From an uncultured virus (IMG/VR IMGVR_UViG_3300038678_000044) (lineage: Duplodnaviria > Heunggongvirae > Uroviricota > Caudoviricetes), in the IMG/VR virus record IMGVR_UViG_3300038678_000044: a stretch of 64,000 bases of DNA; one strand, written 5' to 3'. Position 1 is the stretch's first letter. Each line of letters begins with the position of its first letter. Below the pieces are notes generated by a model. It was not told the DNA's origin, ran no database searches, and saw nothing but the letters and a program-made list of their open reading frames with translations. The position numbers and the translations under genes are program-made. Of this stretch, positions 3,302 to 19,963 are shown in pieces.

Positions 3302-4588
3302 ATGGGTGAACTACTTCAATCATATTTGGCTGCCAATCTTCCTGCCTTGCAGGCGATCGTTGATGAGGATAAGCCGAAACCATCGATCCCGCCTGGCATT
3401 AAACAGCCGGGAGGTGCGACGACATTCCCGATGGGCCCACAACCTGGGCCGATGCAGGGCCAGCCTATTGACGCAGGCGGACAACCGATGGCTCCGATGG
3501 CTTCTATGCCAGGCCCTGGTGGGATCAATCCAGCGGCAGCAGCTACTCCGACCTTCGCTGGTGCGCCAACTCCAGGTCAGCCGCAACCAGCGATGCCTCC
3601 TGTGGCAGGTCAGCCCCAGGATGACAAGAGCGCCGAGTTTGAGGATGGCCCAGATAGCTTCGCCGCTATGGCTAAAGATGCGGACGACAAGGATGTCGAG
3701 AAAGCCGCTGATGCCATGGAACAATCTGGTGTCGATATTGATGCTGAGCATGCCAAGATCGTCGGAGACACCGGAGAAGGAAAGGGCAAGGGATTAAGCA
3801 GGAACGAGAAGGCGCTGATCTTAATGGAGTTCGGCCTGAATCTGATGGCCTCCTCCGGCACAGGTGAGGGCACGTTCGCCAGCGACATCGGCCAGGCTGG
3901 TGGCGCTGCACTCGCAGGTCATGTTGGTCGCAAGCAAGCGTTAAAACAGGCCGAGATCGATCGTATGGAACGCGAGCAAAAGTCGCGGCTCACCGAGGCA
4001 CAGATCAAGAAAGCCGAAACACCAACTGCAACGATCAAGACTGACAAGCAGGGCAACTACATAAACATCTCAGGAGGTGTGGCGACTCCAATCCTGACCG
4101 CAGGTGGTGAACCAGTTAGTGCGGCCAACGTGGAGAAGTTTAACTCCGAGGTCGATCGTCAGGCTTACGAAGAATTGGAGTGTGCAGATCTCTCAGGCTC
4201 TGCATTGAAGGCATGCAAGCGACGTGCGCTTGCATACGGAAAGGGAGGTGGTGCGAAGGTCGCATTTCCAGAGCTTGAGCGAGCTGATCAGACCGATAAT
4301 GTCATGAAGAATTTGGAGGATCCGGACAAGAGATCTGCCAAATATCATGTTCCAAGCATGGGTACAACGATGCGCTGGAAGGATATGACGCCTGCTCAGC
4401 AGGATGAAGTGGCTACGGGATACGTCGATCGTCGAATGAGGATCTGGGAGAACGCAGGTGAAACTGCTGGGGGCATTGAGGGATTGTCGCCAGAAGATAT
4501 TGCCAAAATGAAGCCGGGCAAGATCTACACATTGAGCGATGATCGGAAAGCGAAACTGGTGAATGGTGTCCCGACGATAATCGACTAA
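3302..4588 (+). CDS. Putative ejection (internal virion) protein
   Basis: Pro/Gln-rich N-terminus and a central hydrophobic FGLNLMA...GGAALAG segment. It lies between the pilot gene and the giant gene. Confidence 0.55.
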   Translation: MGELLQSYLAANLPALQAIVDEDKPKPSIPPGIKQPGGATTFPMGPQPGPMQGQPIDAGGQPMAPMASMPGPGGINPAAAATPTFAGAPTPGQPQPAMPPVAGQPQDDKSAEFEDGPDSFAAMAKDADDKDVEKAADAMEQSGVDIDAEHAKIVGDTGEGKGKGLSRNEKALILMEFGLNLMASSGTGEGTFASDIGQAGGAALAGHVGRKQALKQAEIDRMEREQKSRLTEAQIKKAETPTATIKTDKQGNYINISGGVATPILTAGGEPVSAANVEKFNSEVDRQAYEELECADLSGSALKACKRRALAYGKGGGAKVAFPELERADQTDNVMKNLEDPDKRSAKYHVPSMGTTMRWKDMTPAQQDEVATGYVDRRMRIWENAGETAGGIEGLSPEDIAKMKPGKIYTLSDDRKAKLVNGVPTIID

Positions 4589-7500
4589 TGGCGAAGCTAT
4601 CCATCATATCTGAGGAAGATGAGGAACAGGCTGAGCCTTTAGGTGCAAAGCTGTCGATCATCGAAGAAGCCGATGACATAGAGGCTCCGGCCCCTGTGCC
4701 GACAGGGCTGTCTATTGCCAAAGAAGAAGTAGATCCGCAATCCCCACTGACCACGATCGACGTTGGTTCACCAGAGGAACCAGGCTTCTTCACTCGTGCC
4801 CTGGATTCTTTCCAGGCATGGCGCGATGACTTCAGCACTGCGCCTGCGAACAAGTTCACTCGCGAGGAAGCTGAGGAGATCACCAAGCAGAACATCAAGA
4901 TGAATCGCGAGATGTTCAGCAACAAAGGTGGTGGCCAGTTCAGCTTCGGTGATGATAAGCCGGTGCCGCACTCTGCCCTGGTACGCGCCGGGCTGGAGGA
5001 GCCACCAGAGGATGAGGTCGAGCATGCCTTAATCGAACATATGGGAGGAACGAAGTCTCCTGATGGTCGGCTGAAGGCAGAGCGTGAGCAATGGGCCAAG
5101 TATCCGAAGGATCAGAATGGCTTTGTGATCGATCCAACCAGGCCGATCGTTCAAAATCCAGATGGCAGTTCGTCCAGTGAACTCAGCATAACGATTGAGG
5201 TAGGTGGTCGCTGGTTCAATATCCCATCTATGGTAAATGGCAAGCAGGTTTCCCAGGAGCAGGCGATCGAGAGTGCCCGTAGCTGGGCGAAGAAGGGCTG
5301 GATCCATCCGAATTTTGCTACCGTGGAAGAAGCGGAAGAAGCGGCTGGGGCCCGTTCAGATTACCTTTTGACAGCCAGGGATGAGTGGAAAAACCGCAAG
5401 CCGGATGAGCCGAAAGAACCAGAGGAAGAAAAAGAAGAAGATCCCTGGGGCGACGTGATATGGACCAACGTGAGCAATGTGCCGCATCAGTGGAGGGCAC
5501 AGTACGGTGGTGCAAAGATGTGGCTCAACGCGCCACGAGATCTGGCTTACATCCTGGAAGCAGCATCAGACCAGGGAGTTGCCCCGGAGAACAGCTTTGC
5601 CCTTGAGGTCGAGGCTTATGTCCGAGGCAAGGATCCCGCTGAATACTATGGCGAGCTGCTGAAGGAAGCCAAGGACAATGCAGACTTGCAAGAAGGGCTG
5701 CGGATCTACGAGGAAGAAAGCAAGTATCTCCAGGGCCACCAGCCGAACGTCAATGAAGACAGCATCAAGTATTACGCCGGAGCGATCGTCGGAGGTGCGC
5801 TCAATATGGCTCCGATGCTGGTTGCTTCTGCTGTTACCAGGAGCCCCACGGTCGGTGCTGCCATCATGGGAGGCCAGGTCTTCGCTGATCAGTATGCTTC
5901 GTCAATCAAGGCAGGACGATCGCATAGCCAGGCTGTCATGGATGGCACTGTCGTTGCCTCTGCCGAGATCCTGACAGAGCGCATACCGCTTGGAATCCTG
6001 ACCAAAGAAGGCGGCACTCTACTCAAGAGAATGCTGAAGGCTGGTGGTGCCGAGGCAATCCAGGAGCCGATTACGCAGGTCATCCAGGAGGCTTACCAGG
6101 TAGGAATCGTCGATGACGAGATGACCTTTGGCGAAGCTCTGTACGAGATTTTTAGCACCGAAGAAGGTCGAGCAATGATGAGGCGATCGGCCATCATCGG
6201 CTTTGGTGTCGGTGGTGTCCTGGCTGCTTCGGTGCATCCGTTCTACAAAGATATGGTCGATCAGGGAGAGGATCCGACTAAGCCTGGCTGGGTCGATTTG
6301 CCGGAGACCGGGCCTGGTGGAAAGCCCATCAAGAGACGGAAGAAGGGCATCACGCCATCAGAGACGAACGCGAAGATCACGACCGAGGAGGCCGAAGAAC
6401 TTGGCCTGGTTGAGGTTGATGTGAGCGTGGAACTGCTGGAGCGTGTCGCTGCTGGCGATCCACTGACGATCGATGAGCAGTACACCCTGACGAACAATGG
6501 CTATGGCAAATTCATCGGCGCAGATGAGCGAGTCATGCTGCTACCCAAGGGTCGCCAGGAACTGACGGAGCTGCGTGACAAGGCTGCTGGCGAAGAAATC
6601 ATCATGGAGGGTGATGAGGTCACGATCAGGAAAGCCGGTGAGGCGATCGATATTGCTGCACCAGTTGAACCTGGTGAGAAGCCCAGGCGAGCCCAGCGAG
6701 CCATGGAGGAGTTCGCGAAAATCCAGGACCAGTATCCCGCAGCTATGTCGAGGATCGATGCGAAGCTGAAGACGCAGGTTATCGACCAGTGGCAGCAGCT
6801 CAGCAGGGAGAAGATAGATCAGGTAATGGTGATCTTCGATGAGCTGGAGACGCTACCGGAAGGCGAGGACTCCACGAAGCAGCAGCAACGTCTCAAGTTC
6901 ATCCTGGAGGAAGCGCAGAAGGCAGCTCAGGAGCCGCCTGATGAGGAAGGCGATGTCGTCGATACCGAGGGCAGGAAGATCGTCGTGTGGCGTGGAGAGC
7001 ATGGTCTACGTGAGGACCAGGATGAGGAGTTCCAGTCCCTGGTTGGATCGCTGTCGTTCGGTAGCTTGAAGACAGCTCAGACCTATGCCTTGGAGCCAAA
7101 CGATCTCACCAGGCAAAGGATTGCTCAGGATCCTCGTGTCCGTGGCTACACGCTGAATATCAAGAATCCGATCGTCAATACGCCTGAAGATCCGTTCATA
7201 GATCTAGCCCAGGTGAGACGCAAACTTGGAAAGAAAGGGGTTACCCAGGTTCTGAAAGATCACAGCGAAGACATCATGAACACTGGGAAATGGCAGGACG
7301 AATTCGCTGATGAATATGACAGTCCTGCTCAGGTAGCTGAGAAAAGCCCTGAGCGGATGGATAGCCTTTATTTTGAGATTTTCCAGTTTCTGGATAATCC
7401 CAGGCTCGTCGAGATGGCAAGGAAGGCAGGTTTCGATGGCGCGATTCACATGGGCTATGGCGAGAACTTCGATGACATCGAATATCGAATCTTTAATCCT

Positions 7501-10500
7501 GAGCAAGCTACTCCGCTACCAAAGGTTCAGATCGTCATGGAGGAGGATGAGGTCTCCGATATGGAGGTCTTCAGGTCAGACGTTACCGAATCACGCAGTT
7601 CAATCAGGGCTCGTCTGGAGGCAGTACAGCGCCGTGTGAAGGAGCCCAAGAGCCCAGAGCAGGCTGAGGCTGGCAACTATCCGAAGGGACACATGCTGGT
7701 TGATTCGCTTCCGGTGACGATCGAGACCAGGAAGGGCGGCACCAGGACCGGCATCGATCGGAAGGGTAAGCCATGGTCGTTCAAGATGAAGGATCCCTAC
7801 GGCTACATCAAGGGCACCCAGAGCAGGGAGGCTGATGGTCGAGGTGGCTTTGATCAGATCGATGTCTTCATCGGCCCGTACCTGGATTCAGGCCATGCGG
7901 TGATCATCAACCAGAAGAAAGATCCGAAGAAGCCGATGTCCCTGGAGAACTTCGACGAGCATAAGATCATGCTGGGCTACCGGGATACCCTGGAAGCTGA
8001 GGCAGCCTACCGTCGCAATTACACGGACGGTGGCGCACAGATGGGCTCAGTGGTCGCGATGACGACCCAGGAGCTGCGTGAGTGGCTGGAGACTGCCAAC
8101 ACGAAGACGCCTGCCGTTATATCGGAGGTGGTGTTCGTACCTGGTAGAGGCGACGTGGACTTCCGTCCTTTCCAACCGGCCATTGACGCAGCTCTCGCTT
8201 ACACGGCAGCAAACGACATCGAGTACGAGCCAGCGAAGGAGCGAGCCCAGCTCGATACTGTCAGGGCTGCGAAGATCGCGAGAGAGTTCGATGTCATGGA
8301 GCATGCCCCGGAAGATCCAGAGGTCCAGGCGGCTTACCAGGCGATGATCGACGAGACCCTGGCTCAGTATGAATACATCCTGGAGAGCGGCCTGGAGGTC
8401 GAGTTCATTGTCGGCAAGGATCCATACACCAGCCCCAGGGATGCGATCCTGGACATCCAAGAGAACAATCACCTGTGGGTCTATCCCACACGAGAAGGCT
8501 TTGGATCCAGGGCTGAGTTCGAGGCTATCAATAATCCGCTGCTGAATGAGACTAAATACAAGATTTCCGGCAAGGTGGCCCTGGCGAACGACATATTCCG
8601 TGCGGTCCATGATTACTTCGGGCACCTGGCGAATGGCTTTGGCTTCCGTGCCAGGGGCGAGGAGAATGCCTGGCAGCACCATGCGGCCATGTATTCCCCG
8701 CTGGCCAGGCGAGCCATGACCGTGGAGACCAGGGGCCAGAATAGCTGGGTCAATTACGGACCTCATGGTGAGACCAACCGCACAGCGTCGGCGGCTGACA
8801 CCGTGTATGCTGATCAGAAGATCGGGCTCATGCCAGTCTGGGTATCCGAGGAGGGTAGATTAAGTGCCAAACGCCAAATTATTGAGAGCCGCCCAACAGA
8901 GGATGGAGAGCTTGTTGCCCCACCAGTCTCGACAGAAGGGCGCATCACGCTCACGCACTTCAGCAGCCGACCCAACATCGAGCGGATCGATCCCAGCTTC
9001 TACGGGCAAGGCATCCGGGGAGCGGAAGGGCAAAGGGCGCAAGCCAGGCCGGAAACCTGGATCGACCGCACCTACTACGGGGTCGCACCGGGCATTCCAG
9101 GTGGGTATCGGAAGGAATCGGGACTAGGTTCTGAGACCTATACGACGAGCGTCGATGCTCGTCTCATGTATGACCTCCAGGCTGATCCAGAAAGCCTGGC
9201 AGAAACTCCAGATCTTAATGAAACCGAACGGGCAATCCGTGATGCCGGTTACTCTGGCTATTGGCTGAAGCATCCAAGCCTGGGCCTGGTTGCGGCTTCT
9301 TTCGATCCACTCGAAGTCGAAGCAAAGAAGGGGCCATCAGCCAGGGCCAGGTTGAAGACCAATGGCAGGACCAGGCGCTTCACGGTTGAAGAAGTCCAGG
9401 GATTCCTGAGACCAGTCTATTCGATATTCCGCACAGTCCGACCAGTCCATGTCGTCGAGGCCATCGAAGATCTGCCACCGCACCTCCAGGCAGCCATGGA
9501 GGATGAACACTCGAAGCGCAACACCACTGGCATGTATGACCAGGGCGCTTTCAACGATGACATCTACATCATAGCCAACAACATCACCTCCATGGAGGAG
9601 GCGATCGAGACGTTGCTGCATGAAGTGGTTGGTCACTTCGGGCTCAGGCAGGTCATTCCGCCATGGCGATTCGACGAGTTCATGGACATGATCGCGAAGT
9701 CGTTCCCCAAGCAAGTCAGGGAGATAGCCAGGGAATACAGTCTGGATTGGAATGACACCGCTGAGCGCCGGATTGCTGCGGAGGAGTTCATCGCTCATAC
9801 CGCGCAACGCATCCTGGCTGGTCAAACAGTCTCGCAGAAAGCAAAGGAGATCCTGACCAAGATACTCGATGTTCTTGCCAATGTGGTTCGCTGGGCGACT
9901 GGTAAGGATCAGATGTTCACCAGCGGGCAGCTCATGTCGATCATCGCTCAGTCGAGCGACTTCGTGCAGAAACCAGGTGGATACCAGAGATCGAAGCAAC
10001 GAGGCCGACTGCGACACGTCAGCGCACCGTACTTCTTCTCAGCGGTATGGAAGGTATTCAACGAGACCGAAACCAAGTCCACTTCAGCAGAAGGCTGGAA
10101 GCAATTCATCACGTCCCAGATCAAGAAGGGCAAGATGAAACAGTCTGAGCTGGACTGGATGGGCCTGGAAACTTTCCTGGAGGATGCAACCTGGGGAGGT
10201 CTGTACGCACTCACAGGAGGCAAGTGGGCAACAGGGAAAAGAGATTTCGAGGATGTAGAAGCCATATTCCCCAAACCAATGTTCGAGATCTACAAAGAGC
10301 AGCGCGAGCTTGGTGCGGAAATCCAGTCGATCAAAGAAAAAGCTGACCGACTTCGGAAGGAGGCTTTTTACCTGGAGTTCCCGGAGACCGCAGAATTGGT
10401 GGCGAAGTGGAACAATGAAGCCATAGCGTTCAGGGACAAATGGAATGAAGAACATCCGGCAGAGCAGTCCCTTCCTGTCAATGAGCAGCGTGATCTTGCT

Positions 10501-13500
10501 TTGGATGAGGAGCGTCATGATGACCTAACCAAGGAGCTGGAAGTCTTCGCTAAAACCAAGCCGAAGAAAATTCCAGTGCAAACAATTCAATCGTTCATCG
10601 AGCGCAACGGTGTAGACATCGATGTGAGGGAGCCTGGTGGAGACAGGGATGCAGTGGAATTCGACAGTGAAGAAAATCCGGATGAGGAGTCTGAGCCGGA
10701 TGAAGATGATTGGTATGAACACTGGCAAGAAATCGAGCAGAACCAATGGGACAGCTACTATCCAGGTGCCTTGTCAGAGGTCCATGCAGAGCATGACTGG
10801 GATCCTGATCTCGAACCAGATCCAGATATTCCTGAAGAATCAGATATGGACATCACGGAGCTGAACACTGTTCTCGGTGTCTGGGATGGCACTGACGAAG
10901 AAAACATGGATGATGAAGCCAGCGATAAAGCCAGGGAGGCTATTGAAACTGATTACTACGAGGAGGCTCGTGACGAGTGGGTTCAGAAGAATACGGACAA
11001 GATGTGGTACTCAGGCGAGTATCAAATTCGCACAGACAATGAAGGCGATTTCATTGTCAGTCACGAGGGATACGAGCTTGGTGGGTATCACAGTAATTTT
11101 GATGACGCAGTGGCTCAAGCCGAAGAACATGGCCTAGAAACCACTTCTGGCTGGGCAGATTATATGCTCAAGCCTACGGGCGACGGATACGAGGTATTGT
11201 TGTTCCGTTGGGAAAATCCAGACACGGAGCTTTTCACTGAGACTTCTCACTGGGAGCATGACGATAACTTCGTCGTGCATGTCCGCTTCGACATTCGCAA
11301 AGACCCAGACGGTAACGATGCGTTCTACATCGACGAGATGCAATCTGATTGGCATCAGTCGATAGGCAAGGCAATTAAGGCTCGGTTAGACGAAATTCAT
11401 AAGGAACACGGCTTTAATCCTGACCACTGGAATGGTGATGGGACGTTCGGTGGTGGAGAGGAATACGATGGCACTGCACCAGCGGTAATGTATGAGCAGG
11501 CCAGGCTGGAAGCCCTGAAGAATCCAAAGCAGATGGTAGAGTTGGCCAGGGTTGCTAAGGAAAAATTCCAGTTTCTGAAAGAGAATAAGCAGACTCTCAT
11601 TGATGACCTGAAAGCAATGCCGATGGATCGCCACCTCGCTTCGTTTCTCAGGGACTCGAACACTGGCGATGACTCGACTTCTGGTAACAGGCTGCTGGCG
11701 AAGTATTTGTCGATGATAAAAGCCAGAGAAGCTGACGCGATTACGCTTGAGATCGATCTGGATCAATCCCTTCGGCCAGAAATGTTCGAGAAGCATGGTT
11801 ACGTCGAGTACATGAGCGAAGACCTGAACAAGCTCTTTGCAGCTTATCGAGAGATCAGGCCGCAATTCGCCACTGGTACAGAGGACGATCCGAATTTAGA
11901 GCGCATGTCTGCTTTCCCTGGTTTCCAAGACGAAGTTAATAAGCGAGCGAAACAAAAATTTGGTCTTCAACAAGTATTACGTTTGAAGCTCGGCCAGGAT
12001 CCGATACGTTTTATTGAAGACATCTGGATGACTGGAGTGCTTCCGGAAGGCTGGCAAGTCGGAGAGTTGAAGGATGCAGTAACCAGGCCGCATGAGCTAC
12101 CTCCATACGATAAAACTCCTCTCAAGAAGCTGGAGGATGAAACTGGTGCTTTTGCCAAAGAAGAATTGGGCAGGAGAGTCAAGGACGCTGAGTCAAGAGA
12201 AGCCGGACTTGATCCCACCAGCAGCATAGGGAAGTGGGCATCTATTCAGAAAGGTGAACACGAGCAAGATATGTGGCAAAGGATTTCCGGTCAGTGGGAT
12301 CGTACTCAGTTGGATTGGGAGTTGACTGATCTTCCGGATCTTTTTAGGACTTGGGGCAACATATCGCAGCAGATGGAGCAAACCGCCAGCATTACCAGAG
12401 GCATCGAGGCAAATGAAACTGAGCCGCTGCCATTCGGTGTGATTGATTATTCCTTCAGTAGGAAAAAACGCGACACCATGAGAAGACGTGTTCTGAGCTT
12501 CAATGAAGCTAAGGGCGCTCACGAGAGAGTCGCCAATGGCCATACCTTTGCGCCATTCGAGAAGGACTATCAGCTCCTGGTAATCAAGCACATGATCGCT
12601 GAGGCGCAACGACGAGGCCACAAAAGGCTCTACTTCAGCAAAGGCGAAGTTCATGGTGTGCGTTGGAGTGGTGCCCAGTCAGTTGAAGCTGTCAAGTTTG
12701 TGAAACATGCGTTGCCACCTGCAAAAGACGATCCCAATTTAGAGTTGTTCAGCGGAGAGCTGGCACCAGTTGGTAATGAGTATCCGATCACAATCGTTGC
12801 CATGCCTGGTTCCACACGCATTATAGAAACTCGTGACAGGCACGTAAGAAAGATTGTTGGCGATCGTGTCGCTAAAAAAATTATTGATTCACCGGAGGCT
12901 GAAGGCTACATCTCCGCAGAGGACGTGGGGCTTGAAGGCATCTTGTTGCCAACGGAAAGCAGTGGCAGGTATTTGACCGGATCCAGAGTGATCTATAACC
13001 AGGTCGCCGTTAATCAAATCAACAAGTTCCTGAAGAAATTCAAAGGCAAGGTAAAGGATACCTGGGTGCCTGGTACTAGCAGCCAGCCAGATCGGGAAAA
13101 GGTTGAGCAGCAGGGGCTTGCCACTTTCGGTGAGCGTTCAGATAGGGGGAAAAGGTTAGATGCTGCCAGGCTGCGTCGTCTGAGAACGTCAGAGGTAGTG
13201 GAGCATGTTGCAGGTGGGCTAAACAGCCAGCTATGGCTGCGATCACAAGAATACGATGACAAGGCGAACGCTGGTATCTGGGGCATCGACATGCCCGATA
13301 AAGATGGCCTTATGAATTTCGACACCAGTCTTGGTTTCTTCGACAGCCTGGAACGAGCGAGGGTAAAGCTGGAGGAACTGATCAAGGCCGAACACGGACG
13401 CAACTGGGGATACGAAGCGTTCGAGATTGAGATTACACCGAAGCTCCAGGAAGCAGCGAAGAATGGATTCCCGCTATTCCACAAGCGAGGCAAGCCGAAG

Positions 13501-16413
13501 ACCGGCGACAAGGGCCTGGACGATGCACTGGACTGGGCGAATGAAAACATCGGGTCATCAAAACGACGATCGCTCAAACTTCTCTGGGAGAAAATCAATC
13601 AGATCCTGCGGATAGAAAACAAACAGGAGAAGATGGAACAGGCCATGATTGATCAGTTCGCTGGTCTCAAGTGGGCCCTTCGTCAGACACATGGTTACGA
13701 TCTTCCTGCTCAGATTTCAGCGTATAAGCAGGCGCATTTCACGACCAGTGTTGATTCGCAGATGTACGTGTTCCTGACGCATGGCATTCCTGAATGGCAA
13801 ACCGTAGCGACCGCTGAGGGCACTGGAACGATCACAGGCATCAAGGAAGGAAGCAAAGGACTGCTGGAAGTCTGGGAGCCGATAGCAGACAAGATGGAAC
13901 TCTGGGGCTACTGGATGGCTGCCAGGCGAGCGGATCGGCTGTTGAAGGAGGGCAGGGAGGCTTTGTTCAGCCAGGAGCGCATAGATGAGCTGCTGAAGCT
14001 GGGCGATCTGTTCCCGCTATTCCATGATGTAGCGGCTGAATATGCGGACTGGAATAGCCAGTTCCTGGATTGGGCCTCGGAGGCTGGTGTCATCAACGAA
14101 GATACCAGGAAGCTCTGGGAGCATGCGGACTATGTGCCGTTCTTCCGCATCAAGTCCGACGAGATGGGCGGATCCTTTGCCAAGAAAGCTGGCATGGGAG
14201 GCCCAGGAATTGCCAATGTAACGCAGCCAATCAAGCGCCTCCTGGGATCGAAGCATCCGCTGGGCGACATCATGGAAAACATCCTGGTCAACTTCCAGCA
14301 CATCGCAGCTACGACGATGAAGAACAAGGCTGCCCAGCTCGCAGTAGAAAATCTCAAAGACTCTGGCCTGCTAACGCCAGCCAAAGGTATGGACTTCTTG
14401 AAGGAGGAGTTCATTCCTATGGATGAGCTGAAGCGCAAGCTGAAGCAGGCAGGTGTGGACTGGGAGGCCATGCCTGACGAAGCGTTACAGGGCATGCAGA
14501 AGATGTGGACCTTGCAGCAGCCGCCTGGCGACGACTTCATTTCGGTGCTTTACAACGGCAAGAAGAAATGGTTCCAGGTCCACGAGGAAACATTGCTGAG
14601 ATCTCTCACAGCAATCAACGAAAGGAAATTCGCAAGCGTGATTGGTCGCATGTTTATGTGGCCACTCAGAAAGTTCAAGCGCCTCGGCACCACCATGATC
14701 ACACTCGCTCCAGATTTCATGGCGGCGAACTGGTTCCGAGACATCTTTATGGCATTCGTGAACTCACGACACACTAAATTTCCTGCGGTTTGGTCGGCAG
14801 CGACTGGAGCCTGGAAAGCGTTTACGAAATCGCCTGAGATGGTGAGCATGATGGCTGCCGGTGGCGCTTTTTATTCTGGGTATATCAATGCCAACGATCC
14901 TGTCTCGACGACCAAGGCGATGAAGCGAGCCCTGCGTCAGACAGGATTCAAGAACCGTATCCTGGATGCACCATGGAAGCTGTTCCACTTGTACAACGAC
15001 ATCGGTGCAGCATCCGAGAATGCCAACAGAATTGGTGCCGGATACATTCCGGCAATCAGAGCTGGTGCTGGTAAGGCGGAGGCAATCTGGGAAAGTAAGG
15101 ATCTGATGAACTTTGCCAAGCATGGTGATCATGCCCTGGTGCAGTTCTTTGCTCAGTCAGTGATGTTCCTTAATGCCAGGGTACAGGGCATGGTTCGATA
15201 CGGTCAGCGATGGTCAGAAGCTCCAGGGCTGACGTTCACCAAGTCGATGATGTATGCCATGGTTGTGCTGGCGATCTGGTTGAAGAACAAGGATGACGAT
15301 CGATACAAGGCATTGCCTAACGACGACAAGGATATGTACGTCCACTTCTGGACTGGCGGGAAGCACTGGAGGCTGCCGAAGTCATTCGAGGTAGGCATGA
15401 TTTTCGGTGTCGGAGTCGAACGCACGTTCGAGTATTACTACTCCAATGAGGATGATGCCGGTAAGGTCGCGATCGATCGCATGTGGTGGGTGATGGGCGA
15501 GGTATTCAACTTCTTCAATCGAGAGACGCTTTTTCCGTTGCCGCAAGCTGTTGCTCCATTGTTTGAGGCGACGAACAACTGGAACGCTTTCTTCCAGTCA
15601 CCGATCGTGCCGGAGTACATGCAAGACATAGCTGAAGTGAAACCGGAGATCGTCTTTCGTCCGACCACCAGTCCGACAGCTCGTGAGCTGGCTAAGGGTA
15701 TGCCGAAATGGGCTCCAGCTACGCTCAGAAATCCAATGCTGCTTGAGCATCTGACTCGTGGTTATTTCGCGACCCTGGGCGCTTACGTGATGATGTTGTC
15801 CGATGACCTGGTGCGGAAGTCATTCGATTACCCAGCCAGGCCAGATCTCAGGTGGGACAAGATCCCGGTTGTCAGGCGCTTTTACACTGGCGAGGATCCA
15901 CCATCGAGAACCAGCTACGAGGAGATCGTCTACCAGGTACGGGGAAATGCCCGGCAGATCGAGCGAGCTGTCAACAAGATGGAAGACCTGGAAATGGACG
16001 ATGAGATTGATGCGTTCATGGAGGAGCCCTCGAAATACGATCCGACTTTCACCAATGAAGAAGTCGTCGAAGCAGCCAAAGCAATGAGGTTCAGCTACGA
16101 GGAGATGAAGGCAATCCGCAAAGAGATAGCGGAGCTGTGGGAAGACGAAAATATGAGCGGCGAGGAGAAGGGGCGAGAGCTGAACAATCTCCTACGCGAC
16201 AAGCTGGATGCTGCCAAGGAGGGTTACATGGAGCGACCGGGCGCGTCTATCCAGTTCGAGGCATTGCAAGAAACGCTGATCGATATGATTCCAGGTGATC
16301 AAGTGGATTACCTGGCAGAGCAGGGCCTTGGCCAAACTTTGGATCTGCTGGCCTCATTACCTGTGAAGCCCAGCACACGACTGCAACGAATTTTGACGGA
16401 GAACACAGCCTGA
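4588..16413 (+). CDS. Giant polyvalent ejection protein (ART-like x2, InPase-like, HExxH metallopeptidase, LPD38-like)
   Basis: 3941 aa. Motifs: VWRG..TLNIKNP..GFDG..EYRIFNPEQ (ART-like); GNYPKGH..YGYIKGT..DQIDVFIG..FDEHKIMLG (InPase-like); FRAVHDYFGH; LLHEVVGH..AEE; EMQSDWHQ; RLPKSFEVG..PIVP (LPD38-like). Confidence 0.8.
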   Translation: MAKLSIISEEDEEQAEPLGAKLSIIEEADDIEAPAPVPTGLSIAKEEVDPQSPLTTIDVGSPEEPGFFTRALDSFQAWRDDFSTAPANKFTREEAEEITKQNIKMNREMFSNKGGGQFSFGDDKPVPHSALVRAGLEEPPEDEVEHALIEHMGGTKSPDGRLKAEREQWAKYPKDQNGFVIDPTRPIVQNPDGSSSSELSITIEVGGRWFNIPSMVNGKQVSQEQAIESARSWAKKGWIHPNFATVEEAEEAAGARSDYLLTARDEWKNRKPDEPKEPEEEKEEDPWGDVIWTNVSNVPHQWRAQYGGAKMWLNAPRDLAYILEAASDQGVAPENSFALEVEAYVRGKDPAEYYGELLKEAKDNADLQEGLRIYEEESKYLQGHQPNVNEDSIKYYAGAIVGGALNMAPMLVASAVTRSPTVGAAIMGGQVFADQYASSIKAGRSHSQAVMDGTVVASAEILTERIPLGILTKEGGTLLKRMLKAGGAEAIQEPITQVIQEAYQVGIVDDEMTFGEALYEIFSTEEGRAMMRRSAIIGFGVGGVLAASVHPFYKDMVDQGEDPTKPGWVDLPETGPGGKPIKRRKKGITPSETNAKITTEEAEELGLVEVDVSVELLERVAAGDPLTIDEQYTLTNNGYGKFIGADERVMLLPKGRQELTELRDKAAGEEIIMEGDEVTIRKAGEAIDIAAPVEPGEKPRRAQRAMEEFAKIQDQYPAAMSRIDAKLKTQVIDQWQQLSREKIDQVMVIFDELETLPEGEDSTKQQQRLKFILEEAQKAAQEPPDEEGDVVDTEGRKIVVWRGEHGLREDQDEEFQSLVGSLSFGSLKTAQTYALEPNDLTRQRIAQDPRVRGYTLNIKNPIVNTPEDPFIDLAQVRRKLGKKGVTQVLKDHSEDIMNTGKWQDEFADEYDSPAQVAEKSPERMDSLYFEIFQFLDNPRLVEMARKAGFDGAIHMGYGENFDDIEYRIFNPEQATPLPKVQIVMEEDEVSDMEVFRSDVTESRSSIRARLEAVQRRVKEPKSPEQAEAGNYPKGHMLVDSLPVTIETRKGGTRTGIDRKGKPWSFKMKDPYGYIKGTQSREADGRGGFDQIDVFIGPYLDSGHAVIINQKKDPKKPMSLENFDEHKIMLGYRDTLEAEAAYRRNYTDGGAQMGSVVAMTTQELREWLETANTKTPAVISEVVFVPGRGDVDFRPFQPAIDAALAYTAANDIEYEPAKERAQLDTVRAAKIAREFDVMEHAPEDPEVQAAYQAMIDETLAQYEYILESGLEVEFIVGKDPYTSPRDAILDIQENNHLWVYPTREGFGSRAEFEAINNPLLNETKYKISGKVALANDIFRAVHDYFGHLANGFGFRARGEENAWQHHAAMYSPLARRAMTVETRGQNSWVNYGPHGETNRTASAADTVYADQKIGLMPVWVSEEGRLSAKRQIIESRPTEDGELVAPPVSTEGRITLTHFSSRPNIERIDPSFYGQGIRGAEGQRAQARPETWIDRTYYGVAPGIPGGYRKESGLGSETYTTSVDARLMYDLQADPESLAETPDLNETERAIRDAGYSGYWLKHPSLGLVAASFDPLEVEAKKGPSARARLKTNGRTRRFTVEEVQGFLRPVYSIFRTVRPVHVVEAIEDLPPHLQAAMEDEHSKRNTTGMYDQGAFNDDIYIIANNITSMEEAIETLLHEVVGHFGLRQVIPPWRFDEFMDMIAKSFPKQVREIAREYSLDWNDTAERRIAAEEFIAHTAQRILAGQTVSQKAKEILTKILDVLANVVRWATGKDQMFTSGQLMSIIAQSSDFVQKPGGYQRSKQRGRLRHVSAPYFFSAVWKVFNETETKSTSAEGWKQFITSQIKKGKMKQSELDWMGLETFLEDATWGGLYALTGGKWATGKRDFEDVEAIFPKPMFEIYKEQRELGAEIQSIKEKADRLRKEAFYLEFPETAELVAKWNNEAIAFRDKWNEEHPAEQSLPVNEQRDLALDEERHDDLTKELEVFAKTKPKKIPVQTIQSFIERNGVDIDVREPGGDRDAVEFDSEENPDEESEPDEDDWYEHWQEIEQNQWDSYYPGALSEVHAEHDWDPDLEPDPDIPEESDMDITELNTVLGVWDGTDEENMDDEASDKAREAIETDYYEEARDEWVQKNTDKMWYSGEYQIRTDNEGDFIVSHEGYELGGYHSNFDDAVAQAEEHGLETTSGWADYMLKPTGDGYEVLLFRWENPDTELFTETSHWEHDDNFVVHVRFDIRKDPDGNDAFYIDEMQSDWHQSIGKAIKARLDEIHKEHGFNPDHWNGDGTFGGGEEYDGTAPAVMYEQARLEALKNPKQMVELARVAKEKFQFLKENKQTLIDDLKAMPMDRHLASFLRDSNTGDDSTSGNRLLAKYLSMIKAREADAITLEIDLDQSLRPEMFEKHGYVEYMSEDLNKLFAAYREIRPQFATGTEDDPNLERMSAFPGFQDEVNKRAKQKFGLQQVLRLKLGQDPIRFIEDIWMTGVLPEGWQVGELKDAVTRPHELPPYDKTPLKKLEDETGAFAKEELGRRVKDAESREAGLDPTSSIGKWASIQKGEHEQDMWQRISGQWDRTQLDWELTDLPDLFRTWGNISQQMEQTASITRGIEANETEPLPFGVIDYSFSRKKRDTMRRRVLSFNEAKGAHERVANGHTFAPFEKDYQLLVIKHMIAEAQRRGHKRLYFSKGEVHGVRWSGAQSVEAVKFVKHALPPAKDDPNLELFSGELAPVGNEYPITIVAMPGSTRIIETRDRHVRKIVGDRVAKKIIDSPEAEGYISAEDVGLEGILLPTESSGRYLTGSRVIYNQVAVNQINKFLKKFKGKVKDTWVPGTSSQPDREKVEQQGLATFGERSDRGKRLDAARLRRLRTSEVVEHVAGGLNSQLWLRSQEYDDKANAGIWGIDMPDKDGLMNFDTSLGFFDSLERARVKLEELIKAEHGRNWGYEAFEIEITPKLQEAAKNGFPLFHKRGKPKTGDKGLDDALDWANENIGSSKRRSLKLLWEKINQILRIENKQEKMEQAMIDQFAGLKWALRQTHGYDLPAQISAYKQAHFTTSVDSQMYVFLTHGIPEWQTVATAEGTGTITGIKEGSKGLLEVWEPIADKMELWGYWMAARRADRLLKEGREALFSQERIDELLKLGDLFPLFHDVAAEYADWNSQFLDWASEAGVINEDTRKLWEHADYVPFFRIKSDEMGGSFAKKAGMGGPGIANVTQPIKRLLGSKHPLGDIMENILVNFQHIAATTMKNKAAQLAVENLKDSGLLTPAKGMDFLKEEFIPMDELKRKLKQAGVDWEAMPDEALQGMQKMWTLQQPPGDDFISVLYNGKKKWFQVHEETLLRSLTAINERKFASVIGRMFMWPLRKFKRLGTTMITLAPDFMAANWFRDIFMAFVNSRHTKFPAVWSAATGAWKAFTKSPEMVSMMAAGGAFYSGYINANDPVSTTKAMKRALRQTGFKNRILDAPWKLFHLYNDIGAASENANRIGAGYIPAIRAGAGKAEAIWESKDLMNFAKHGDHALVQFFAQSVMFLNARVQGMVRYGQRWSEAPGLTFTKSMMYAMVVLAIWLKNKDDDRYKALPNDDKDMYVHFWTGGKHWRLPKSFEVGMIFGVGVERTFEYYYSNEDDAGKVAIDRMWWVMGEVFNFFNRETLFPLPQAVAPLFEATNNWNAFFQSPIVPEYMQDIAEVKPEIVFRPTTSPTARELAKGMPKWAPATLRNPMLLEHLTRGYFATLGAYVMMLSDDLVRKSFDYPARPDLRWDKIPVVRRFYTGEDPPSRTSYEEIVYQVRGNARQIERAVNKMEDLEMDDEIDAFMEEPSKYDPTFTNEEVVEAAKAMRFSYEEMKAIRKEIAELWEDENMSGEEKGRELNNLLRDKLDAAKEGYMERPGASIQFEALQETLIDMIPGDQVDYLAEQGLGQTLDLLASLPVKPSTRLQRILTENTA

Positions 16414-17934: not shown

Positions 17935-18127
17935 TGATTGCTTTGCAAGGCACAGCGTAAGCCAGTCAGCAGATCTACCTACTGAGGGCTCGATTACGAT
18001 CAAGGAGTATGTGGACTGGGCGAATGCCCTGGTCGTCGTTACTCGCCGCTATCGGGCTCAGGCTCATCGTTGTGGGGTTTTGAATCAAGGGGCTTCCGAT
18101 CCAGAAGCTCCGATCGAAGAACCTTAA
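17822..18127 (+). CDS. o-spanin lipoprotein (Rz1-like)
   Basis: [13 protein letters not shown] lipobox and Pro-rich [11 protein letters not shown]. It starts inside the i-spanin gene in another frame. Confidence 0.75.
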
Positions 18128-18245
18128 TCTGTCTCGGTGCTTCTATGCCCAGTCTCACCTGTCCGCCTCTCGTCCCTAACACTGTTATCGTGACTGCTTC
18201 CCCGATGTTTATTGATTCGCCCTGGTTCCTTGTCAGAATCAGCAT
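18039..18245 (-). CDS. csrA: CsrA/RsmA family translational regulator
   Basis: [40 protein letters not shown] matches the CsrA pattern. Start ATG at 18245. Confidence 0.9.
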
Positions 18246-18483
18246 CCCTTTTCTCCGTTTCCTGATACTCATCGATGGCGGCGATGATGGTGCGTAGTGT
18301 ATCGGCTTTTGCAGATCCGTCAATGGAGGGTTTACTGGTAGCCAGCATGACCAGGAGATCTTCCAGCTCATTCCATAGAGCGTTCAGATCTTTATGCTCA
18401 GCCTCACCGATCGGCCTGGTAAGATTTTGCAGCCGATCGATGAGGTCTTGTGCCCTGGCAACGGGGTGATCGCAGACAGTCAT
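18124..18483 (-). CDS. Hypothetical protein
   Basis: Helical ORF in the operon. Its tail overlaps the 5' part of csrA. Confidence 0.5.
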
Positions 18484-18505: not shown

Positions 18506-19027
18506 CTACTTCTCGGTTTCCTCTGTCTTCTCCTCGGATTCAGTCTCTGGATCCTCGAATAGATCTGTCTGCTCGATGTGGATAGCCAGGTCGAACGACT
18601 TATTCATCAGCGCATTGATGCGGATGAGTTCGTTGTCGTTGTACTGGGAGTATTGAATCAGGCCAGTCAGGACGACATGGTTGGGTGTTTGCAGTTCAGC
18701 CTTCAGTGATTTCAGATTGCAGGGTTTCAGATCCAGCGGCTCACCAAAGTCTTCCTGGTCCCAGATCTTGACGACTGCACCTTCCGGCTTTCGGTTGATG
18801 TGGATGGGGTTGATCGATGGCCGGGCGACGTGACCTTCCTGGGTAAACAATACGTTGGCCAGTGCATCGTCATCGCCATCAGTATCTTGGGTAGGGGCGA
18901 GCATGGCCAAGACCGATGTGCCCAGGGTGACTGAGAATGGCAGGTCGAAGGCATTGCCTTTGTTCTTTTCTTCTCGTGGATTGAATACGCCGAACTTTGC
19001 TGTGGTGCGCTCTAACTCGAATTGCAT
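18506..19027 (-). CDS. Hypothetical protein
   Basis: 173 aa with a GGAG ribosome-binding site and an acidic tail. Confidence 0.65.
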   Translation of the reverse strand: MQFELERTTAKFGVFNPREEKNKGNAFDLPFSVTLGTSVLAMLAPTQDTDGDDDALANVLFTQEGHVARPSINPIHINRKPEGAVVKIWDQEDFGEPLDLKPCNLKSLKAELQTPNHVVLTGLIQYSQYNDNELIRINALMNKSFDLAIHIEQTDLFEDPETESEEKTEETEK

Positions 19028-19052
19028 GACGGACTTCTCCTAGTTGTTGTTA

Positions 19053-19219
19053 TGGGGAGCGTCCCAGGAGTCGAACCTGGGCGTGGATGGGTAGTTAGCC
19101 CACTTGCCACTGGTCGCAGGGAGTATGAGGGGCTTCCTCGAACTCAAGCAATCGGTATGATCTCGATGCTTGAGCTTCTAATCTCCCTACCAGCACGGCT
19201 GCCGCTTCGTCACCGCTCC
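19053..19219 (-). ncRNA. tRNA-like RNA with a 74-nt branched insertion in place of the anticodon loop
   Basis: Acceptor GGAGCG/CGCTCC, U8, D-arm ACG-AAGCGGCAGC-CGT, stem CTGGT/ACCAG, long variable arm, CCAGG-TTCGACT-CCTGG T-arm and 3' CCA. It fills an intergenic gap. Confidence 0.75.
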
Positions 19220-19224
19220 GTTGT

Positions 19225-19479
19225 TTACTTCTTGCGCCAGATCCTGGCGAACTCAGCTTCCTTTCCATCAGGCTTCTTGAGATCGACAGGCTCCTTAACC
19301 TTGTTGACAACGAACCGCTTCTCGGTTCGCTTATTCATATTGCTGGCTGCATTACGGAGTGAAGTCCAATACTCCGGATCGACGCGAAACGAATCACCGA
19401 CTTCCATCACATCGATATGCCTTTTGAAGTTCGGTCGTTCCTTTGGGACTGGGATTCCCTTGTCGATAGTAATGTCCAT
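19225..19479 (-). CDS. Small DNA-binding-like hypothetical protein
   Basis: IDKGIPVP..MEVGDSF..ARIWR pattern, common in phages. GAGG RBS. Confidence 0.6.
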   Translation of the reverse strand: MDITIDKGIPVPKERPNFKRHIDVMEVGDSFRVDPEYWTSLRNAASNMNKRTEKRFVVNKVKEPVDLKKPDGKEAEFARIWRKK

Positions 19480-19480
19480 A

Positions 19481-19963
19481 TTATTCCTCTCCGCTCCGGA
19501 AGTAGTAGTGAACCTCATGACGGTCGTCTGCTACGTCCAGGTTATGAACGATGTGAGCGTTCGTGCCTCGTGGAAACATCTCGGCTTTGAGCAAGTCGTT
19601 GCCGTTGGCAGTCACCTCAGTCCTGGAATTATACGTGGTCTGAAGGAATTCGTTTACCCTCCAGAATGATTCGTGATCAACCTCATCGAAGATCCAGATG
19701 CCGCTGACAAGGATCTCATTCTCGAAGGCGTAGATGAGCGTGACCCTTTCTTCCAGTAGCTTGCCGTGATACGAGAGGTTCGTGCAACTGGCACTGATCA
19801 GCTCATAATTCTCTCGCTCCATGTCGGAGGAGATGAACTCGATGTCGGTGCCCCAGGCATATCCGCTGAAACCACCAAAGTCTTTGGGCGGAGCTGCTGA
19901 TTCCTGGGCGAACGCCAGATAGCCGACCAGCAGGAACGCAAATGATAGAAATAACTTTCTCAT
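19481..19963 (-). CDS. Secreted protein (Sec signal peptide), moron-like
   Basis: MRKLFLSFAFLLVGYLAFA-QE signal peptide. It has its own GGGTACAG leader motif. Confidence 0.65.
   Translation of the reverse strand: MRKLFLSFAFLLVGYLAFAQESAAPPKDFGGFSGYAWGTDIEFISSDMERENYELISASCTNLSYHGKLLEERVTLIYAFENEILVSGIWIFDEVDHESFWRVNEFLQTTYNSRTEVTANGNDLLKAEMFPRGTNAHIVHNLDVADDRHEVHYYFRSGEE

Follow-up and report, generated by a model that had tools for sequence, protein, structure and literature searches.

An anticodon-less, tRNA-shaped RNA gene within an operon of uncultured tailed phages

Introduction

Stable RNAs that resemble tRNAs are annotated in the genomes of phages T4 and T5, and we found no paper that explains them. 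Here we describe an RNA gene of this sort in a stretch of 64,000 nucleotides (nt) from an uncultured virus of the class Caudoviricetes (IMG/VR record IMGVR_UViG_3300038678_000044), which was analysed at its full length and is called the window below. The gene lies at 19053..19219 on the minus strand and folds as a class II tRNA cloverleaf in which a structured domain of 74 nt replaces the anticodon loop. Unlike the single-genome cases, it has relatives that are diverged enough to show which parts are selected. Our literature search turned up no paper on this RNA or on T5 RNA1, older T4 and T5 work in subscription journals being outside its coverage.

The same plan is found in T5 RNA1 (AY543070 30501-30644), which is likewise phage-encoded and carries the annotation 'tRNA-like stable RNA with unknown functions'. 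T5 RNA1 has a class II body with an acceptor stem, a D arm, an anticodon stem of 5-6 base pairs (bp), a long extra-arm hairpin and a T arm, and in its fold a structured domain of about 47 nt takes the place of the anticodon loop, against 28-74 nt in the RNA described here and its relatives. The present RNA is therefore not a new kind, and the novelty implied by an earlier reading of the window, a first-pass annotation made from the letters alone, was set too high. The two RNAs have no sequence similarity and differ in other ways as well. The body of T5 RNA1 is of leucine type, its 5' part aligning with T5 tRNA-Leu, whereas ours resembles tRNA-Ser and tRNA-Sec; T5 RNA1 belongs to a large tRNA cluster, whereas ours is the sole tRNA-like gene and stands between protein genes; and T5 RNA1 is annotated as stable, whereas for ours stability is a prediction. 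The tRNA cluster of the T5 record also contains RNAIII, RNAI and RNA2H, each likewise annotated as a stable RNA 'with unknown functions' (L057:785-1001 and 2309-2480).

A looser version of the plan is seen in T4 species 1 RNA (rnaC), which together with species 2 RNA (rnaD; AF158101 70908-71171 for the two) makes up a pair of small phage RNAs annotated as stable and assigned no function. In rnaC the ends pair, the T arm is canonical and long hairpins occupy the place of the anticodon arm, but no D arm or anticodon stem can be recognised, while rnaD shows little tRNA likeness in its fold (z = -0.83). Both lie within the T4 tRNA cluster, unlike the present RNA, which is not clustered. The present RNA is thus a sequence-unrelated addition to the known but unexplained tRNA-like RNAs of phages. 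What is new relative to the T5 and T4 RNAs is the body, apparently of Ser/Sec type, the standing as sole tRNA-type gene, the position between protein genes and the availability of relatives that reveal selection.

Other RNAs are tRNA-like in different ways. In the part of PMC4201824 used here, YrlA (RF02553), a tRNA-like Y RNA bound by Ro60/Rsr, is described as a tRNA-mimicking, non-decoding RNA of bacteria and some phages. We saw no match to RF02553, and no Ro60-like (TROVE) gene among 114 scans of window open reading frames (ORFs), a weak negative given that most of these ORFs have no family. In YrlA it is the acceptor end that is capped by a loop, while the ends of the molecule lie on the anticodon side, the opposite layout to that of the present RNA. 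Transfer-messenger RNA (tmRNA) resembles the present RNA in its acceptor/T-arm module and in the long helix at the place of the anticodon arm; the present RNA, however, lacks a G3-U70 pair and a tag reading frame, but has a real D stem and an extra arm. In engineered 'tRNA scaffolds' the tRNA body allows an attached structured RNA to be processed and stabilised, and the cargo replaces the anticodon loop as it does here, though these molecules are man-made. The tRNA-miRNA chimeras of the herpesvirus MHV68 also use a tRNA body for processing, but they come from a eukaryotic virus and carry their hairpins 3' of the tRNA, whereas in the present RNA the cargo position is that of the anticodon loop. 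The VIPR guide RNAs, which the part of that source used here (10.64898/2026.10.15.759431) presents as tandem GGYNN units, were considered and are unrelated to the present RNA.

Structure of the RNA gene

Read along the minus strand, to which all positions in this section refer, the gene runs from G1 at 19219 to C72 at 19056 and is followed by CCA at 19055-19053. The 5' strand of the acceptor, GGAGCGG (19213..19219), opens with six bases (G1-G6) that pair with 19056-19061, and these six pairs are invariant in 8/8 variants; the counts here and below refer to eight full-length variants and one partial variant, which remain after identical copies are dropped. G7 stands opposite A66, which together with the acceptor 3' strand CGCTCC occupies 19056..19062. 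T8 and G9 (19212-19211) lie just 5' of the D arm (19195..19210), which consists of a 3-bp ACG/CGT stem and a 10-nt loop containing GG, AAGCGGCAGC, and G26 (19194) lies just 3' of it. In the anticodon stem the 5' strand CTGGT (19189..19193) forms five pairs with ACCAG (19110-19114), four of them invariant; in the variant L016 the remaining one is an A-C mismatch. The extra, or variable, arm measures 28 nt (19082..19109) and between 25 and 46 nt among relatives, and it forms a helix in all eight full-length variants. It is followed by the T arm CCCAGG-TTCGACT-CCTGGG (19063..19081), with a 6-bp stem and a loop that reads TTCAACT in L026. The hallmarks of a tRNA, namely the acceptor stem, the D arm with GG, the TTCRANY T loop, U8 and G26, are invariant or nearly so across the eight full-length variants. 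The minimum-free-energy fold has -72.5 kcal/mol (z = -4.26), and none of 200 shuffled sequences was as stable.

Where a tRNA has its anticodon loop, this gene has 74 nt (19115..19188) that form a three-way arrangement. The basal helix P1, AGGGAG/CTCCCT (19183-19188 with 19118-19123), has 6 bp, three of which show compensatory change. ATTAGA (19177-19182) separates P1 from the hairpin P2 (19141-19176), a 10-bp AGCTCAAGCA/TGCTTGAGTT helix that RNAfold lengthens by way of a bulge. The smaller hairpin P3, GAGG-AAGCC-CCTC (19127-19139), has its stem changed from GAGG/CCTC to GGGG/CCCC in L026, and the domain closes on the 3' side with an unpaired GCG (19115-19117) directly before ACCAG. Every element that the first-pass annotation had listed can be found in this reading of 19219-19053. 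Its description of the 3' end needs to be qualified. CCA does follow the acceptor stem, but it does so directly after CGCTCC, so that the end reads C73-C74-A75 with no discriminator base in front of CCA, and the triplet is encoded in 3/9 variants only; the C right after CGCTCC is present in 9/9. The strand from the T loop to C72 has 13 nt, where 12 is usual. Pair 3-70 reads A3-T70, so there is no G3-U70 pair, just as had been stated.

None of the eight full-length variants has a 7-nt anticodon loop with U33; the two strands of the stem are separated by 28-74 nt instead. In every variant the insert begins with AG directly after the stem and ends with CG directly before it, and any 7-nt loop made by deletion would thus lack U33. 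Searches with standard tools gave a consistent picture. ARAGORN at default settings called no tRNA or tmRNA in the 64-kb window, none with introns allowed at the default threshold and none in tmRNA mode, and it called no homologue locus. When the score threshold was lowered to 70-80%, it proposed a 'tRNA-Gly(acc)' with a 74-nt intron positioned inside a stem, which is implausible. Rfam gave no match at gathering score across the window, and around the element a cut-off of E <= 10 brought up chance rows for lncRNA and miRNA families with no match to tRNA (RF00005). At E <= 1, five homologue loci yielded two chance rows, both elsewhere, so that no family is matched in the window, at these five loci or in a complete relative. 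An insert of this size is far too short for a group I intron, as the first-pass annotation had stated, and no Rfam intron is matched. The interpretation of the structure as a non-decoding tRNA mimic is well supported, in that there is no Rfam match, no route to a normal tRNA and, as shown below, covariation. The processing by RNase P and the part as a decoy or sRNA scaffold that the same annotation suggested are predictions, and its interpretation is supported in part.

The body was compared by alignment with six Escherichia coli class II tRNA genes, and among these its 5' 19 nt come nearest to serU (tRNA-Ser; 15/19) and its 3' 31 nt to selC (tRNA-Sec; 23/31 ungapped), with which it has in common the T loop TTCGACT and the 13-nt strand. 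The 3-bp D arm is of Ser/Leu type, while tRNA-Sec has a D stem of 6 bp. On this comparison the body appears closest to the serine/selenocysteine type of class II tRNA. What the phage RNA has in common with serU and selC in overall form is the class II shape and the long extra arm; it departs from them in lacking an anticodon loop, in an extra arm of up to 46 nt and in the C that follows the acceptor stem in place of G. Seryl-tRNA synthetase (SerRS) ignores the anticodon and reads the long arm, and the discriminator G of tRNA-Ser and tRNA-Sec contributes to its recognition. The acceptor of the phage RNA starts G1-C72, G2-C71, A3-U70 and its D stem has C11-G24, all of which are identity elements of E. 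coli tRNA-Ser.

Conservation and covariation

Relatives were sought with exact and degenerate patterns in IMG/VR, in a metagenome scan and in the genomes of 185,579 species. The IMG/VR patterns placed the element on six contigs; a further match (L012) was a chance match inside a coding sequence. The metagenome scan gave nine loci, of which three duplicate IMG/VR contigs and six are additional. A 22-nt T-arm/acceptor-3' pattern with one degenerate position had no genuine match in the genomes of the 185,579 species, its single match being a chance one inside an archaeal coding region, and BLAST against cultured phages found no match for the element or for the 1.5 kb around it. The covariance model R1 matches 19050-19219 with 141.9 bits as its sole match in the window, and each of five related records likewise yields a single copy. 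No repeat of the element longer than 12 nt occurs elsewhere in the window.

Comparing the variants shows that selection treats the body and the arms very differently. The 62 nt of the tRNA body are identical to the window at 59-62 positions across the eight full-length variants, whereas the last 255 nt of the gene upstream are merely 70-92% identical over the same variants. The inserts, in contrast, measure 74, 61, 72, 51, 50, 50, 40 and 28 nt and the extra arms 28, 46, 44, 45, 25, 34, 28 and 35 nt, and neither can be aligned between types, yet both are helical in every full-length variant. Folds of the eight variants give each insert a basal P1 helix, 3-4 unpaired bases ending in CG on the 3' side and one or two hairpins, and give each a long helix in the extra arm. 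The total length ranges from 125 to 178 nt, and since the differences are not multiples of three, the element is not protein-coding.

To count pairs we used an alignment of the eight sequences and the structure given above, which together provide 258 pair cells, with 3' partners slid by 1-3 columns and 500 shuffles as controls. Standard pairs fill 96.5% of the cells, compared with 35-46% when the partners are slid. Two-sided, compensatory changes occur at nine pairs, a number matched by 0/500 shuffles, and all of them are in P1 (3/6 pairs) or among the basal pairs of the extra arm (6/8). The helices of the body are invariant and are therefore uninformative on covariation either way. Covariation among homologues, which the first-pass annotation had named as a check, is thus present. 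RNAalifold, applied independently to the eight variants, recovers the acceptor, the anticodon stem, P1, the base of the extra arm and the T arm; in the D region it draws GCGG/CCGT, another small hairpin, in preference to ACG/CGT.

The arms also occur in discrete types that combine independently of each other. The window and L004 have a common extra arm and unrelated inserts, while L002, L021 and L016 have a common insert and three different extra arms. Within an arm type, the single-stranded ATTAGA and the AAGCC/CAGCC loop are retained. The arms are exchanged as modules and kept only as helices, and the tRNA body and the loss of the anticodon loop are fixed.

Expression data came from the assembled contigs of one metatranscriptome (X19). 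These contigs cover the 5' body and both flanking genes, in a depth pattern that is the same as in a DNA run and shows no enrichment over DNA, and they contain no transcript ends and no joint that removes the insert. In one X19 contig that covers window 19040-19182, 232 other letters stand where the window has 141, so the element must have at least one additional variant of greater length.

Genomic setting

The window belongs to a tailed phage, in which a terminase, a portal protein, a major head protein, RecT, exonucleases, a single-stranded DNA-binding protein (SSB), a DnaB helicase and RusA were recognised. Its DNA was found in marine-sediment and marine metagenomes. By large terminase the nearest cultured relatives are Roseobacter phages, at 42% identity, which may be a hint to the host. 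Wherever the flank suffices, the order at the locus is an 84-aa gene, the RNA, a spacer of 25-150 nt, a 173-aa gene, a gene of about 110 aa and a CsrA homologue. In the window, G1 lies 5 nt past the upstream stop codon and the RNA gene ends 25 nt ahead of the next start, and no promoter-like or terminator-like site was seen near it on the minus strand. The RNA gene is an internal part of an early minus-strand operon and has no signals of its own. It is also the sole tRNA-type gene found in the window, with none other in a complete relative of 72.8 kb, in which ARAGORN found no tRNA or tmRNA and Rfam no RNA. Among the window ORFs, most of which have no family, no gene for a tRNA-processing enzyme, ligase, synthetase or integrase was recognised.

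The upstream gene (19225..19518, minus) is linked to the RNA at every locus and is a 97-aa ORF in the window, mostly called as 84 aa in relatives, from M14 at 19479. Its product is small and basic, contains a WTSLRNAASNMNKRT helix that does not vary and ends in RIWRK, and it has no Pfam or PHROG match; Pfam at E <= 10 over 16 members of the family gave nothing consistent. The AlphaFold model of the 97-aa protein, with a pLDDT of 69, matches an Alba/IF3-C-like fold weakly (Z 5.5, rmsd 2.9 over 72 residues), a match that stays within the range of common arrangements. A language-model (Atlas) search offered DUF7303 as a look-alike with a score of 0.88, which Pfam did not confirm. This protein is a candidate RNA-binding partner. 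The downstream gene (18506..19027, minus) follows the RNA after the spacer and encodes 173 aa with an acidic tail. No family and no BLAST match in cultured phages was found for it, nor did its AlphaFold model (pLDDT 77) match any fold at E <= 0.001. The 84-aa protein (33 clusters) and the 173-aa protein (52 clusters) occur in this phage group only.

The last gene of the operon, which is present in relatives too, encodes the CsrA homologue (18039..18248, minus; Pfam PF02599, E = 1.1e-22). In E. coli K-12, csrA stands directly upstream of the tRNA-Ser gene serV; that the phage, too, has csrA next to an RNA with a Ser-type body may reflect capture of a csrA-serV-like locus from a host or may be a coincidence. 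Upstream of the CsrA gene, a 119-aa ORF (18124-18483, minus) overlaps it by about 125 nt in another frame, and because homologues of this ORF have 87-115 aa, its true end is uncertain. In four variants, the RNA and the 173-aa gene are separated by an additional 110-125 nt that are conserved in part and come in two types (L026:2977-3112; L027:2891-3028; L021:1523-1672; L018:32-185, the last on the minus strand). This stretch is absent from the window, L002, L013 and L016; its possible identities are a leader, a small ORF and a second RNA. Elsewhere in the window, positions 4588-16413 on the plus strand form a single ORF of 3941 aa with PHROG matches to large virion or ejection proteins, and an internal domain (residues ~1000-1180) is common to endolysin-like, minor-head and DarB-like antirestriction families.

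Discussion

The job that we rank first for this RNA, and put forward tentatively, is that of bait for a host tRNA-directed enzyme. It is placed first because the gene lies in the early region and is the sole one of tRNA type, because its body belongs to a class of tRNAs recognised by body and long arm, and because MenT3 offers a precedent. The enzymes of the host that mature tRNAs would excise the RNA from the polycistronic transcript, with RNase P cutting at G1, trimming at the 3' side and addition of CCA, and the excised RNA would fold into a stable L shape. It would never enter the ribosome, and would instead occupy a host protein that reads the tRNA body and the long extra arm and not the anticodon. 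The preferred target would be a tRNA-directed defence or toxin enzyme such as the AbiEii/MenT nucleotidyltransferases. MenT3, a member of the AbiEii abortive-infection family, selects tRNA-Ser via its long variable loop, according to the part of PMC11162799 drawn on here. Since a closed rod stands in place of the anticodon loop, we propose that the mimic could also not be cut by anticodon-loop nucleases.

Several points weigh against the RNA being a bait. The extra arm, which is what MenT3 reads, varies more than any other part of the RNA. Nor would acting purely as a decoy account for arms of discrete types in independent combinations. Among the window ORFs, most of which are without a family, neither a tRNA enzyme nor a tRNA-targeting counter-defence partner came to light. 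The ends, stability and processing of the RNA are without support from the RNA library, whose contigs also span the flanking genes at a depth like that of DNA. Finally, all nine variants have C after the acceptor stem and not the discriminator G of tRNA-Ser and tRNA-Sec, which weakens models that need SerRS-like recognition.

Some alternatives concern what the gene is. It is very improbable that we are looking at a true tRNA gene with a short intron that yields a decoding tRNA once spliced, even if the insert is located exactly at the usual tRNA intron site, if ARAGORN at lowered threshold reports its tRNA-Gly(acc) with a 74-nt intron, and if in L013, the shortest variant, a 3-nt bulge adjoins a 4-bp helix, much like half of an archaeal splice motif. 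The catalytic core of a group I intron takes about 200 nt or more, and the archaeal bulge-helix-bulge consists of two 3-nt bulges with a 4-bp helix between them. The inserts are far below the size of group I and group II introns and match no Rfam intron or ribozyme; P1 has 5-6 bp in 7/8 variants against the 4 bp required by a bulge-helix-bulge, and there is no second bulge. Cutting by the bulge-helix-bulge rule would leave loops reading AGGGAGG, AGAGGGG or AGGAACG, which lack U33 and would equip one and the same body with differing 'anticodons'. The genes of the phage, such as DnaB, RecT and RusA, are of bacterial type, and no contig from the RNA library has a spliced joint. Splicing to a normal tRNA, the outcome that the first-pass annotation saw as fatal to its reading, thus has no route in these sequences, with no 7-nt loop in 8/8 variants and every deletion-made loop lacking U33. 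Even more improbable is a decaying tRNA pseudogene, or a site acting at the level of DNA such as an attachment site copied from a host tRNA gene. The anticodon has indeed been lost, and phages often carry fragments of tRNA genes at attachment sites. However, both halves of the body stay conserved and complementary over diverged phages while the arms show compensatory change, no tyrosine integrase was found in 5/5 related records, one of them a complete genome, and the 22-nt 3'-body pattern found no genuine counterpart in the genomes of the 185,579 species.

The remaining alternatives accept the mimic and give it another job. A possible one, which we place behind the bait, is that of a natural tRNA scaffold, in which the body serves for processing and stability only and the variable arms bind a protein of phage or host or another RNA, with the 84-aa protein and CsrA as candidates. 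This would suit the independent assortment of discrete arm types (window and L004; L002, L021 and L016) and the retention of ATTAGA and the AAGCC/CAGCC loop within types, as well as the linkage at every locus of an upstream gene whose product has a weak Alba/IF3-C-like fold and the presence of a CsrA gene in the same operon. GGA, moreover, occurs 20 times in the variable parts where 10.7 are expected. These motifs are mostly in stems and not in hairpin loops, though, the fold match of the upstream protein falls within the range of common arrangements, and the near-total invariance of the body stems would be unneeded if the arms alone mattered. No complementary target was found within 1.4 kb, duplex energies with a variant's own flanks are no better than with the flanks of other variants, and there is no match longer than 12 nt elsewhere in the window. 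A CsrA sponge was looked at separately and is a weak candidate, the roughly twofold enrichment of GGA being mostly within stems. An antisense or immunity RNA like C4 of phage P1 or CI of phage P4 was also set aside as far as targets in the flanks and elsewhere in the window go, given that own-flank duplexes have no advantage and no repeat longer than 12 nt occurs in the window. Rather unlikely, in our view, is a signal for processing or stability ('tRNA punctuation'), by which RNase P and 3' enzymes would split the early operon transcript and uncouple the flanking genes, the excised RNA itself being jobless. It is true that the gene lies between cistrons, with a stop codon 5 nt ahead of it and the following start 25-150 nt behind it, that it lacks its own promoter and terminator, and that an anticodon is dispensable for such a role. 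RNase P needs little beyond the stacked acceptor and T stems, and the invariant sequence of the D arm and anticodon stem, along with the maintained helices of the long arms, exceeds such needs. We consider it improbable that the RNA is an aminoacylated carrier, charged by SerRS so as to donate its amino acid to a non-ribosomal reaction or to tie up the synthetase. The Ser/Sec-like body with its long extra arm would fit, as would the acceptor start and C11-G24, which match the tRNA-Ser identity elements of E. coli; against this stand the C in place of G after the acceptor stem in 9/9 variants, the spread of the extra arm from 25 to 46 nt and the lack of any aminoacyl-tRNA-dependent transferase among what was found in the window.

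Returning to the bait, a broader and more doubtful proposal is that class II tRNA look-alikes without an anticodon, including the present RNA and T5 RNA1, may make up a widespread and coherent set of phage counter-defence RNAs. The body would bait host enzymes that attack or modify tRNAs by way of their body and long arm, here of AbiEii/MenT type, and the exchangeable arms would either be shaped by an arms race or carry a second cargo. As the RNA is small and defined and the exchange of arms among its relatives provides natural controls, the role of an anticodon-less tRNA becomes directly testable. If the RNA does act as bait, the counter-defences of phages would gain a class of RNA, and the engineered tRNA scaffold would have a natural precedent.

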